From positions 1-64,000 of the IMG/VR virus record IMGVR_UViG_3300025769_000077: DNA of 64,000 nucleotides, one strand, 5' to 3'. A program made the position numbers and the translations under genes. This document shows, piece after piece, positions 43,806 through 49,276 of this stretch. The notes beneath the pieces are model-generated. The model was not told the origin of the DNA, ran no database searches, and saw nothing but the letters and a program-made list of their open reading frames with translations. This DNA is from a virus. Every line of letters begins with the position of its first letter. Position 1 is the first letter of the stretch.

Positions 43806-44261
43806 ATGTTTGTAGGTTACAAAAGAAGAGCTGTCGTAACAGCTCCAACAGAAACAGAACCGCGTTTTACTTTACATGAGTTTAAAGGAACCGGTACAGC
43901 ACGTAAGTTTGAATTAAACACCGTTGCTGGAGAAGCATTAGGTGTATCACAAGGTGACTATGTTACCTTTGGATGGCAAGAAGATGATGAAAATCTTTAT
44001 CTATATAAAGTAGATAGAGAAGCTCTTGCTGAAGATGAACAAAAATATGCTTTTAGGTTAACTAAAGAGTTAACTTTCTCTAACAAAGGAGCATATGAAT
44101 CAATTGCAGAAGATTATTCTATTAACCCTGAAGAAGGTGGTAATGTGAATGTAGAAATTACTGAAATTGATGGAGTAAATTATTTAAAAATGGTTGTACC
44201 TACTGAAGGTGAACCAGAATTAACTGAAGAAGAAAAAGAAACCTGGAAAAATGGCATTTAG
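43806..44261 (+). CDS. Hypothetical acidic protein
   Basis: ORF; LGVSQGDYVTF is weakly AbrB-like. Confidence 0.55.
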   Translation: MFVGYKRRAVVTAPTETEPRFTLHEFKGTGTARKFELNTVAGEALGVSQGDYVTFGWQEDDENLYLYKVDREALAEDEQKYAFRLTKELTFSNKGAYESIAEDYSINPEEGGNVNVEITEIDGVNYLKMVVPTEGEPELTEEEKETWKNGI

Positions 44262-45060
44262 CGGAAACGAAAGTGGTTCTACGGAATCACGTAAAAGACT
44301 TTATATAGGTCTTGAAAAATTTAAAGTAACAGCATTTAACCCTAACAAAGCTCAATTAGCTGAGATGGGTATAATTGTTGATGATGAACTTAATTACATC
44401 TCTGAAGATGAAGGTGTAAAAACATCAAGAGTTGCAATTTACTTGGATAATGATGATACAGATAACAATGTTAAAACTGTATTGTCTATCTTCTTAAGAG
44501 ATGAACACCAAACTACTATGAGTGGTAAACTCAAGTGGATTAACAATGAAGGTATTAGCTTCTATGGTACTCAAGAAGATATTGATAACAAGAACTTTTA
44601 TGATTGGATGAAACAAGAAGATGAAGAAGGTAATACCAAAGTAGATTTGGAAAGCTTTGTTCCTTGTAAATCTAATCAAGAAGAACTTGTTAATTTCATT
44701 AAAACATTTGCTAACGTAAAGAACGGTGATCCAGCTTATATTGAAAACATGGATGCATTGTTTAATGGTGACTTTAGCGAATTAAATGGTCTATTAGAAC
44801 ATTTTCCTAATAATAAAGTAGGTGTTCTATTAGGAGTTAAGACTAAAGACGATGGTACTTTAGTACAAACTCATTATTTGAAGAAGTTTGAGAGAGGTTT
44901 CTCTACTGACATGTCTTATCTACAAACTAGTGTAAATAGCTGGAGAGAGAATGGTGGTGGATCTAATGTAGACTTTGGTAACTTCCCTTATAACTTTAGA
45001 GAATATGTTCCAACTGCAGCAGGAGTTGATTCTTCTGCAGAAGACGATATACCTTTCTAG
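44251..45060 (+). CDS. Putative single-stranded DNA-binding protein
   Basis: C-terminal DDIPF; position between AAA ATPase and primase. Confidence 0.7.
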   Translation: MAFSGNESGSTESRKRLYIGLEKFKVTAFNPNKAQLAEMGIIVDDELNYISEDEGVKTSRVAIYLDNDDTDNNVKTVLSIFLRDEHQTTMSGKLKWINNEGISFYGTQEDIDNKNFYDWMKQEDEEGNTKVDLESFVPCKSNQEELVNFIKTFANVKNGDPAYIENMDALFNGDFSELNGLLEHFPNNKVGVLLGVKTKDDGTLVQTHYLKKFERGFSTDMSYLQTSVNSWRENGGGSNVDFGNFPYNFREYVPTAAGVDSSAEDDIPF

Positions 45061-46038: not shown

Positions 46039-46325
46039 ACGTTGGAATAAGAAATGTAAGTTATTTTAACGGCTTATATGATAATAAAAGTGAAGAAATA
46101 ATACTTCCTACTAACTTGTCTACCAAGTTAGATCTAAGTGCTGTTAAAATAATAAGAATGATGGGTTGCGTATATATGATTCCAACTAAAGAAGGATATT
46201 CTGTAAGGAATCATAAGATATCAATGCCTAGACAAATATTTAAGTTGTATTTTGGAACAACTAAAAAAACCAAGCTAAAATTAATTTTTAAAAAGAATAA
46301 AATTCAAATAACATGTCAAAATTAG
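46035..46325 (+). CDS. Hypothetical basic protein
   Basis: ORF overlapping neighbours. Confidence 0.5.
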   Translation: MNVGIRNVSYFNGLYDNKSEEIILPTNLSTKLDLSAVKIIRMMGCVYMIPTKEGYSVRNHKISMPRQIFKLYFGTTKKTKLKLIFKKNKIQITCQN

Positions 46326-46561
46326 TAACAATTTATTCATCAGTAGGAGAGTCTAAAAAAGAAGTTAGAACTGATGCTGAAAACTGGGGAGAACTTCAAG
46401 TAGACCTTAATGGAGCAGGTGTATCTATTGATGGAAAAAAAGTAATTCTTAAGCAAACAAAAGCAACTTTAGAAAGTTCTGAAGCTGTATTACCGACTAC
46501 AGATTTTGCTATTATGCTTATTCCAGGTAAAGTAAAATCTGGTAACGAAAAAAAGCACTAA
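46313..46561 (+). CDS. Putative ubiquitin-like (beta-grasp) protein ending KVKSG-NEKKH
   Basis: Size and strand-strand-helix pattern (VTIYSS/KEVRT/WGELQVDL); Gly near C-terminus; first gene before E2, JAB and E1. Confidence 0.6.
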   Translation: MSKLVTIYSSVGESKKEVRTDAENWGELQVDLNGAGVSIDGKKVILKQTKATLESSEAVLPTTDFAIMLIPGKVKSGNEKKH

Positions 46562-46637
46562 GTCCTTGTCGTACTAGAAAAGTCAATGATAATATTGCTA
46601 AGTTATTTAGTAGTATTCCTAGACAAGACGATAAGGA
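46549..46637 (+). promoter_or_regulatory. Candidate -1 programmed ribosomal frameshift signal
   Basis: In-frame A_AAA_AAG (46549-46555), 7-nt spacer, stem TCCTTGTCGT/ACGATAAGGA; -1 frame open to TAG 46695. Confidence 0.6.
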
Positions 46638-46684
46638 AGATAAAGATGCTCAAGCAGTTCTAAAAAGATTGAAGGAAGAATTCA

Positions 46685-47701
46685 ATGTCGACTAGTAATC
46701 AAAGATATGAAGGGAGTTATACACTCCCTTCTTCTTATAACAAGGATAATTATGATAAACTAATAGATTTACTGAACTTATATTTTAAGGATAATTGGTG
46801 TTTTAATAATGATGGTGTTGAATTTACAGGTATTGAGTTAGTTATTAAGTTTGATAGATTGACTATAAGTAATTCTAGAAATAGATCTCATACTATTAAT
46901 GATTTATATGTATTTTTATATATAAATGAACAAGGAATTCTTAACACTGCTAGTATTAAAGGTGGTCGTGGTAAATTAAGTTCAAGTGAATATGCTAGTA
47001 ATTATAAACATTCTCATTTAAGTGGAAATGTTTTAAAAAAAACATGGTTTTGTACCGGAAGTGGTCACATTAATGAAGCTTTAGCTAACTGTTGTGATGA
47101 ATTTAATATAGATAATTTTGATATTCTATTTGCTAATTTATTATCATTTGTTGAATGGGAATCCTTAGAAGGAGTTCCTTATAAATATATGAGTAATATT
47201 AGATTAAATGACGGAGTATCTTATTTATGTATTGATCAAGATTTAACACGTAGAATTATAGAAAAATTAAAAAAAGATGACTTTGATTTAAGTATTAGAA
47301 CTAATCCTACTGTTGTTATAAATCAGAAGTTTATAGATGCTTGTGTTAAAAACGGATGTCCTTTAGGTTACGAAGCAGATAATGGTAATTGGTGTACTGA
47401 TATATCACAACAATCTAGTAATAACTCATTAAAAACAGATTTTTCATTTAAAAACAAAAAAGTTATTTGTGAAATAACTTCAGATATAAATGATAAAAAA
47501 GAAATTGAAAAAAAACCATATATTAAACAAATAGAAAATGTTGCAAGAACAATTGAAACAAGAATCAAGCTTGAAAGAATCAAAGATTCCTTCTACTCCA
47601 GCTCTGAGGTTAGTGAATTCTGGAAAGAAATTCAAATTAGTGATTTCACAAGAACTGAAGTTGACAATAGAGAAACTATGCAAAGAAATTTCGCATATTG
47701 A
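46685..47701 (+). CDS. Prokaryotic E2-like conjugating protein
   Basis: YKHSHL..FCTGSG, the His..Cys arrangement of prokaryotic E2 families; operon context. Confidence 0.6.
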   Translation: MSTSNQRYEGSYTLPSSYNKDNYDKLIDLLNLYFKDNWCFNNDGVEFTGIELVIKFDRLTISNSRNRSHTINDLYVFLYINEQGILNTASIKGGRGKLSSSEYASNYKHSHLSGNVLKKTWFCTGSGHINEALANCCDEFNIDNFDILFANLLSFVEWESLEGVPYKYMSNIRLNDGVSYLCIDQDLTRRIIEKLKKDDFDLSIRTNPTVVINQKFIDACVKNGCPLGYEADNGNWCTDISQQSSNNSLKTDFSFKNKKVICEITSDINDKKEIEKKPYIKQIENVARTIETRIKLERIKDSFYSSSEVSEFWKEIQISDFTRTEVDNRETMQRNFAY

Positions 47702-48614
47702 GTGGTCAGGACCTATCTTTTACGAGATATTAGAAGGAAATATGAAAGATCCTTCTAAGTTGGTTATTAAAGCATTTGACTTTAGATTAATGGATATTGG
47801 TACTTCAGGATATACAGAGTATGAAACTGATGCTGATTTAGGTATGTTTATGTTTGATAATAATTACGTAGATAATATTAAGATGGGTCATATGCACTCT
47901 CATCATACTATGAAAGCTTACTTTTCTGGTACAGATAATGGAGAATTAATTGACAACGCACCTAACCATAACATCTACTTAAGTCTTATTGTAAATAATA
48001 AGATGGAAAACGTAGCAAGAATTGCTTATGTTGTTAAATCAAATATAGGTGGAACAGTAACAGTAAAAGATATAGATGGTTCTGATTTAGTTCAAGGATA
48101 TCAAGACGAAGATTACATTGAGTATTTAGATGCTGATATTGAATATGAGCAACCTACAATGGATTTTACAGATCTTGAAGCAAGAATTAAAGAATTACGT
48201 CCTAAACCTAAATCTTATGGTACTTTTATAACACCTGGAAAACATCGTCAAAGTGTATATGGTTTACAACAAACTTTAAAAGATACTCCTGGATTTGAAA
48301 TTGATAAGACTATAAAACTTAAACAATTTGTATCTAAGTTTCTTAAAGGAGTGAGTTTTAGTGGTACACTACAAGACGCAATGAGAGAATTAGCTCTAGC
48401 TTATCCTAGTTCTACTAGTTTTACTCCTTATGTGGAAAAACAACATAGAGAAGGATTTGGTAGAAGAGCTTATGAAACAGTATTTGGATTACCTTATAAA
48501 CAACAAGAGTATTACATAATTTTACTTGAAGCTATAATGATGATGGATGATTTAACTTATTGTCAATATCATTTTAACATGTTAATGTCTTGTTTTGAAT
48601 CATTTACAGACTAA
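47538..48614 (+). CDS. JAB/MPN metalloprotease (deubiquitinase-like)
   Basis: EWSG..GHMHSHHTMKAYFSGTD JAMM motif. Confidence 0.85.
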   Translation: MLQEQLKQESSLKESKIPSTPALRLVNSGKKFKLVISQELKLTIEKLCKEISHIEWSGPIFYEILEGNMKDPSKLVIKAFDFRLMDIGTSGYTEYETDADLGMFMFDNNYVDNIKMGHMHSHHTMKAYFSGTDNGELIDNAPNHNIYLSLIVNNKMENVARIAYVVKSNIGGTVTVKDIDGSDLVQGYQDEDYIEYLDADIEYEQPTMDFTDLEARIKELRPKPKSYGTFITPGKHRQSVYGLQQTLKDTPGFEIDKTIKLKQFVSKFLKGVSFSGTLQDAMRELALAYPSSTSFTPYVEKQHREGFGRRAYETVFGLPYKQQEYYIILLEAIMMMDDLTYCQYHFNMLMSCFESFTD

Positions 48615-49276
48615 TGAGTAGATTTGAAAGATTTAAAGAAGCAGCATGGTTCGGTATGAACGAATTACCTGTTGTTGTAGGTGGAGTAGGTGGAATCGGT
48701 TCTTGGGTAGCTTTATTGTTATCCAGAACCGGTTGTAACCTTATAATCTATGATATGGATATTGTAGAAGAAATAAATATGGCAGGACAATTATACAGTA
48801 CAGATAGTATAGATCAGTTAAAAATAGATGCTGTTACAGATATTGTAGATAAATTTAGTCCTGGCACTGAAATCGATTCTTTTGAAGAATACGATGAAGA
48901 AGGAATGGTAACTCCTATTATGTTTTCTTGTTTTGATAATATGAAAGCTAGAAAGCAAATGTTTGAAAACTGGAAGAAACAAGAAGATAGAGAGTTATTT
49001 ATAGACGGTAGACTTTTAGCTGAACATTATCAAGTGTTTGCTGTAAGAAAAAGTCAAGAAAAAGAATACGAAAAACACTTATTTTCTGATGATGAAGTAG
49101 AAGAAGCTCCTTGTTCGTATAAACAAACTTCACATTATGCTGCAGGAATTGCATCTAAAATGGTTGCTTGTTATACAAATTACTTAGCTTTAAAAGCAGA
49201 AGATGAAACTGCTGAAGTTCCTTTCTATCATGAGTTTATGGGTAAAATATTTTATTTAGAATGTTATTACGTATAA
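48614..49276 (+). CDS. ThiF/E1-like adenylating enzyme
   Basis: GGVGGIGS, YDMDIVEEINMAGQ, CFDNMKAR, IDGR, candidate catalytic Cys in APCSYK. Confidence 0.9.
   Translation: MSRFERFKEAAWFGMNELPVVVGGVGGIGSWVALLLSRTGCNLIIYDMDIVEEINMAGQLYSTDSIDQLKIDAVTDIVDKFSPGTEIDSFEEYDEEGMVTPIMFSCFDNMKARKQMFENWKKQEDRELFIDGRLLAEHYQVFAVRKSQEKEYEKHLFSDDEVEEAPCSYKQTSHYAAGIASKMVACYTNYLALKAEDETAEVPFYHEFMGKIFYLECYYV

Follow-up and report, generated by a model that had tools for sequence, protein, structure and literature searches.

In the phage DNA analysed here, the 123-nt gap between the gene for a ubiquitin-like protein (Ubl) and the E2-like gene that follows it is spanned by an open -1 frame, which is coding sequence between 46555 and 46683, now or until recently. 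We put at about an even chance the reading in which this gap represents the C-terminal tail of the Ubl, displaced to the -1 frame and read by recoding. Since the -1 tail is coding and is reachable only via an A_AAA_AAG heptamer at the end of the Ubl gene, the likeliest interpretation of the locus is a frameshift by which both a short and a long precursor arise. The window, by which we mean the whole 64-kb stretch that was analysed, is the first part of a 98,405-bp IMG/VR virus record and has a G+C content of ∼30%. Unless otherwise stated, positions are those of the window and all features lie on the plus strand.

The Ubl operon and its -1 reading frame

Around the site the genes run in the order primase, small ORF, Ubl, E2-like, JAB-like and ThiF/E1, and Flavobacterium phage FpV4 and a crAss-like phage share this gene order. 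The Ubl operon is phage-encoded and lies within the replication module. The host is probably a member of the Bacteroidota, and no tRNA gene was found within the 64-kb phage window. We also observed that the 269-aa protein encoded at 44251-45060 has the C-terminus …AEDDIPF, which we take to be the acidic tip typical of single-stranded-DNA-binding proteins and which fits a replication module.

The Ubl gene (46313-46561) has an 82-aa zero-frame product with a predicted beta-grasp fold. The product belongs to no Pfam family and has no sequence match to the PADLOC or Pfam Ubl models; its own family is PHROG 15560, of unknown function. In an AF2 model of it (pLDDT 82.8) the elements follow the order beta-beta-alpha-beta-beta, and Foldseek matched this model to ubiquitin, NEDD8 and SUMO at TM values of 0.6-0.69. 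The protein runs through K-V-K-S-Gly77 and then NEKKH to the stop. Gly77, encoded by GGT at 46541-46543, is the presumed conjugation and cleavage glycine; it forms an invariant column across three alignments and is invariant among 76 homologues. The gene ends in the codons GGT (Gly77), AAC, GAA, AAA, AAG, CAC and TAA, so that the string GAA AAA AAG CAC TAA, which the original prediction had placed directly after the glycine codon, is present but stands one Asn codon (AAC) further on. The zero-frame stop, TAA at 46559-46561, ends the short Ubl precursor.

The downstream genes are assigned with differing degrees of confidence. The putative E2-like gene (46685-47701, taken from the ORF list) shares its reading frame with the Ubl gene, and its product falls into PHROG 15310, of unknown function. 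The protein has no Pfam or PDB sequence match and no PADLOC match, and its identity as an E2 is suggested only by a weak lead to Prok-E2_D. The next gene (47538-48614) would encode a JAB/JAMM-like protease, with an E value of 0.0013 for Prok-JAB, which is below the Pfam cut-off, and of 0.0048 for the PADLOC JAB model. The assignment of the ThiF/E1-like gene (48614-49276) as an E1 is clear from its profile matches, to PF00899 at an E value of 4.4e-17 and to PADLOC E1-E2 models at values down to 5e-9.

No gap between 35 and 54 kb is larger than the 123 nt that follow the Ubl stop. It had been predicted that the -1 frame would run open through this gap to TAG 46695 and overlap the E2 ATG (46685), and the sequence is exactly so: the -1 ORF that is the candidate tail (46555-46695) comprises 46 codons and the stop TAG at 46693-46695, and it overlaps the E2-like gene by 11 nt. 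An overlap of 11 nt is the typical gene junction in this phage. The ORF contains no ATG and no GTG, and its sole TTG lies eight codons ahead of the stop.

To judge its coding character, we scored the -1 frame of 46555-46683 (43 codons) by codon log-odds, with the genes of the phage itself as the training set. The -1 frame scores 31.1, as compared with 30.9±9.5 for true 43-codon gene windows, whereas the remaining two frames of the same segment score -46.9 and -96.8, values like those of off-frame sequence, and the maximum among open off-frame windows is 5.1. A frame of 43 codons stays open by chance with a probability of ∼0.014 (1.4% of first-order Markov sequences), and only two of 3000 open Markov sequences reach a score of 31.1. 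In sliding windows the coding signal passes from frame 0 to frame -1 at the heptamer and back to frame 0 at the E2 start. Thus, the -1 frame of this segment is, or was until recently, coding sequence.

Comparison of the -1 peptide with the C-terminal tails of related Ubl proteins gave no detectable similarity. In BLAST searches against the family tails the best scores were equal to those of shuffled sequences, and profiles built from 158 or 130 family C-termini matched the peptide with E values of 17-44, at which it was not the top scorer among the 1502 ORFs of the window. An hhalign comparison with the family tails returned a probability of 0.2, and a search of PHROGs found no match. A post-hoc count of end-to-end BLAST matches was higher than expected (11 as against 1.75±2.1), to which we give little weight. 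We also noted by eye that the end of the tail (…LKEEFNVD) looks like the family C-terminal motif (…REF.D[VI]), a likeness that did not reach significance. With respect to other uses of the gap, Rfam gave no family above chance and no promoter signal in the gap exceeded those of shuffled sequences.

Slippery heptamer and downstream RNA structures

The first point to note is that entry into the -1 tail is confined to a very short segment. A -1-frame TAA (ggT AAc, 46543-46545) closes the -1 ORF upstream and bounds the shift window on its 5' side, and the zero-frame stop bounds it on the 3' side; what is left is five codons (46546-46561), which consist of the heptamer and its flanks. Because of this upstream TAA, and because the ORF has no usable start, the tail can be entered only within these five heptamer-holding codons. 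The A_AAA_AAG heptamer (46549-46555), which is also the A7 run, has its first A at codon position 3, and is thus in the slippery phase, as had been claimed for a dnaX/IS3-type signal. A_AAA_AAG is the heptamer most prone to shifting in Escherichia coli. A deletion that turns A8 into A7 makes the same in-phase heptamer, and its phase and position therefore carry equal weight for a programmed shift and for a plain indel.

The bare heptamer is common, with 48 occurrences in the window as against 42 expected. In phase, it is rare, with five occurrences across the 98-kb genome as against 18.3±4.2 expected. We considered this scarcity as a sign that the sequence is shifty in the host and dropped the idea: in the same whole-genome test A_AAA_AAA, A_AAA_AAC and T_TTT_TTA are equally depleted in phase, and the depletion therefore reflects a generic avoidance of homopolymers. 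Two of the five in-phase heptamers are carried by a single ORF of 13,431 nt (∼4,470 aa), which lies outside the window on the minus strand, at 70222-83653 of the full record.

A Shine-Dalgarno-like stimulator of the dnaX type was not seen in the 15 nt 5' of the heptamer; such an element is not required in all members of this class of sites. Slippage of the polymerase offers a second way into the same frame. Bacterial transcriptional slippage usually needs at least nine A or T residues, whereas the run here is A7 and falls short of such a long homopolymer; low-level polymerase slippage may nevertheless take place at it.

Downstream of the heptamer, the predicted 10-bp stem with one G-U pair was found as described. 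Its 5' arm (46563-46572) begins 7 nt 3' of the heptamer and pairs with a 3' arm at 46628-46637, and the stem is part of the minimum free energy (MFE) fold. A second, inner hairpin of 10 bp (46592-46616) lies within the outer stem and appears in both the MFE and the centroid structures. The MFE fold has an energy of -27.1 kcal/mol (z -2.18), and four of 200 shuffled sequences fold equally well. A stem of at least 10 bp starting 4-9 nt downstream arises with a probability of 0.014 in shuffles and of 0.036 in random genomic windows. When the comparison is made by synonymous resampling, the fold has a z of -2.98 as against an average of -1.27±1.33 for ordinary genes of the phage. The stem is thus only modestly unusual, and its fold does not stand out from those of control genes.

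A further structure lies beyond the -1 ORF. A very strong, G+C-rich terminator-like hairpin at 46709-46731, with 9 bp of which five are G-C, is followed by UUCUUAU (the U-rich segment being 46732-46739) and covers codons 9-16 of the E2-like gene. It folds at -16 kcal/mol with a z of -5.5, which none of 200 shuffled sequences equalled. The hairpin starts 14 nt past the -1 stop and 148 nt past the zero-frame stop. A strong hairpin is likewise present in 36 of 52 distinct relatives, mostly starting 8-30 nt past the stop of the tail and with a T run next to it in most rows; in the relatives it sits between the Ubl-tail gene and E2. The distance of 14 nt in the window falls in that range and fits a tail that ends at the -1 stop. 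In the window the E2 start has moved 5' of the hairpin, which gives the E2-like protein an N-terminal extension of ∼15 residues relative to that of locus L004.

The tail in relatives and on other contigs

A profile search with the Ubl domain returned 1529 clusters at E <= 0.001. In this family the domain ends in K[VT]KSG, with an invariant glycine, and among the best 150 of the 1529 representatives most proteins continue for 60-280 aa in frame past that motif. Short forms, with one to six residues past the glycine, make up 19 of the best 150 representatives (∼13%). The same picture emerged from genomic context, where the tails of 79 IMG/VR loci and two metagenome loci are mostly fused in frame.

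The short forms are instructive, since nine of the ten short-form loci carry, directly behind the Ubl gene, a small ORF that begins with an ATG of its own. Five of these loci (L039, L064, L065, L072 and L085) start the tail ORF at a TAATG that overlaps the Ubl stop, in the -1 frame; these ORFs encode 46-51 aa, and the tail in the window has 46 aa in the same frame. Separate small tail ORFs with their own ATG, of ∼40-125 aa overall, were also observed in L022, L023, L026 and L042. Some of the separate tail ORFs resemble, by eye, the short in-frame tails of other loci. One locus (L051) has no tail ORF at all, and since tail-less forms exist the tail may be dispensable. A shifted tail with no start codon of its own was found in none of ∼80 more distant loci, which leaves the window as the sole case.

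Judged from these sequences, the tail is nearly universal in the family and is either fused or split off. The separate tail ORFs suggest fission of a Ubl-tail fusion and a tail that works as a free polypeptide. A model of one of the fusions (pLDDT 85) starts with the Ubl and a flexible linker that contains the glycine; a helical domain follows, then a disordered segment, and a long helix closes the chain. In the family the helical domain carries the pattern …SY.E.R..I…HF…KNYT…, and the C-terminal helix ends in a motif like L..EA..L.R.F.D[VI]. The paper library that was searched holds no description of this family that we could find.

The exact 82-aa Ubl occurs on nine contigs, which come from JGI, Logan and ENA. 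Beside this identical Ubl the E2 gene has three alleles, which differ by up to 12 residues (11-12). An 83%-identical Ubl from another contig, known as a protein, ends in ...SGNEKK. The tail peptide, alone or fused, is absent from a collection of ∼15 billion proteins. In scans of viral contigs (with the E2, with a close pair of Ubl sequences, and with an exact DNA pattern allowing A6-A8) and of genome contigs, no match exceeded 55% identity.

Proposed decoding of the tail and alternative readings

In the recoding reading, most ribosomes would end at the TAA at 46559 and produce the 82-aa precursor (Ubl followed by NEKKH). A fraction would slip one base back on A_AAA_AAG, with the stem-loop 7 nt 3' of the heptamer raising the slip rate, and would produce a precursor of 127 aa (Ubl, NEKK and 46 further residues) whose coding end lies 11 nt within the E2-like gene. 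By an alternative route, a polymerase that adds one A to the A7 run would give rise to the same 127-aa protein. If the JAB-like protease cleaves past Gly77, as the analogy with Bil systems would predict, the long precursor alone would free a tail peptide of ∼50 aa. That shifting occurs, and at a useful rate, is inferred, as are the JAB cleavage and any coupling to E2.

These considerations bear on the proposal, made from the sequence at the outset, that there are short and long pro-Ubl isoforms with two alternative tails. The anatomy of the candidate recoding site, the coding -1 ORF and the position of the tail in the family all speak for two precursors. Should JAB cut after Gly77 as in Bil systems, however, the same mature Ubl would result from both isoforms, and the shift would then control the supply of tail peptide, and perhaps the expression of E2, rather than provide two Ubl tails. 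The accompanying suggestion that translation couples the Ubl to E2 is speculative, and the element that can now be added to it is the hairpin 14 nt past the -1 stop. One elaboration would be a frameshift-gated attenuation, in which slipped ribosomes interfere with the hairpin or start again at the E2 ATG, or do both, so that the slip rate would set the amounts of E2, JAB and E1 per Ubl, together with free tail peptide after JAB cleavage. We think this more elaborate scheme rather unlikely.

The main competitor to programmed recoding is an unprogrammed homopolymer indel, whereby an ancestral in-frame A8 fusion lost one A, the short pro-Ubl works, and the tail, which is either untranslated or made by adventitious leakage, has simply not yet decayed. 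We hold this to be possible, at well under an even chance. Among frameshift mutations, homopolymer indels are the most frequent, and the step from A8 to A7 yields exactly the in-phase heptamer; short forms account for 19 of the best 150 representatives and L051 lacks a tail ORF altogether; no homology between the tail and the family tails could be detected, the stem is unexceptional against control genes, and none of the relatives examined has the same arrangement. On the other hand, the -1 ORF is undecayed, with 46 codons free of stops and a codon score at the mean of live genes, and its end overlaps the E2 start in the manner of live gene junctions. The truncated product is moreover fixed on nine contigs, beside E2 alleles that differ by 11-12 residues, and the 83% relative likewise stops right after NEKK. 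If that relative was truncated by the same event, the event is an old one, and a dead ORF would then, on a rough estimate, probably have gained stops. The tail is also retained as a separate gene in nine of ten short forms, and it therefore seems to matter.

The other readings carry less probability than the indel. The tail might be a separate small gene, translated by reinitiation past the Ubl stop at a non-canonical start and requiring no frameshift; the five relatives that start a -1-frame tail ORF at TAATG, in the same frame and with a length similar to that in the window, point in this direction, but the absence of ATG and GTG from the -1 ORF, the position of its only TTG eight codons before the stop and the lack of a near-cognate codon beside the zero-frame stop (the use of ATT being without support) make it improbable. 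An assembly or sequencing indel, with A8 as the true sequence and an ordinary 127-aa Ubl-tail fusion as the product, would account for a break within a homopolymer, and repair would give the gene the majority architecture of the family. Assembly error is nevertheless unlikely, because three independent sources gave the exact 82-aa product, on nine contigs in all; the diverged relative ends at the same place, and neither a fused product nor the tail peptide occurs in the 15-billion-protein collection. We therefore rate this reading as highly improbable. Finally, the gap might be a non-coding spacer with RNA signals only, open in the -1 frame by chance, and it would suit this reading that the bare heptamer occurs no less often than expected; a joint probability of ∼1e-5 (0.014 for the open frame and 2/3000 for the gene-like score) leaves that reading practically negligible.

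Recoding at the heptamer has its closest parallel in the -1 frameshifting of E. coli dnaX and the IS3 elements. These share with the present site the same in-phase A_AAA_AAG, a stem-loop 5-9 nt downstream and a zero-frame stop soon after the site, and their short and long products have a common N-terminal body. In dnaX, by contrast, the shift yields the shorter product and is aided by an upstream Shine-Dalgarno-like stimulator, of which none was seen here, and the structure here, unlike those of dnaX and IS3, is a 75-nt irregular hairpin of modest significance.

In eukaryotes, ubiquitin-ribosomal protein fusions are separated by deubiquitinases. As in those fusions, the Ubl is the N-terminal part of the precursor and, after the predicted cleavage, the C-terminal partner would be a separate polypeptide, although the tails are not homologous. 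In the Bil systems, the JAB protease BilC exposes the glycine of BilA, from which overhangs of 1-9 residues extend (10.1101/2023.09.26.559546; 10.1101/2023.09.04.556158). The phage locus resembles them in its beta-grasp Ubl with a conserved glycine, in its order of Ubl, putative E2, JAB-like and E1 genes, and in its 5-aa overhang, which falls within the 1-9 range. It differs in that the tails of the phage family are mostly 60-280 aa and in being phage-encoded, within a replication module.

Two cases of slippage illustrate opposite outcomes. In Shigella, homopolymer slippage in spa13 adds a C-terminal extension (112 aa) that overlaps the next gene, spa32, and affects its expression (PMC5009743). 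There, as proposed here, a fraction of the product is extended, with the coding end of the extension running into the gene that follows; the difference is that spa13 relies on polymerase slippage and belongs to a secretion-system operon, whereas in the phage either ribosome or polymerase would act on a run of seven A. In the 'savior' or compensated indels exemplified by the G-run of herpesvirus thymidine kinase, low-level shifting at a homopolymer partly corrects a one-base indel in the same run (PMC5009743). The unshifted product is useless in that case, whereas the 82-aa precursor that the phage makes without a shift is a complete pro-Ubl.

If the recoding is real, a classical type of -1 site would be found in a context that is new for it, namely a phage Ubl modifier precursor, and the ratio of Ubl to tail peptide, and perhaps of Ubl to the conjugating enzymes, would be fixed at decoding. 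The family tail is variously fused, split off or, in the window, placed in the -1 frame, which suggests that it has a role independent of the Ubl. If the arrangement is just a recent indel, it would be an ordinary mutation of no wider interest.

A second unusual junction was observed further along the operon, where the E2-like gene shares 164 nt (47538-47701) with the JAB-like gene; the two are read in different frames, with some coding signal in both. Overlaps of 125-170 nt between the two genes are also present in L004, L005 and FpV4, and one of 50 nt in cr128_1; the long E2/JAB overlap thus seems to be a conserved feature.
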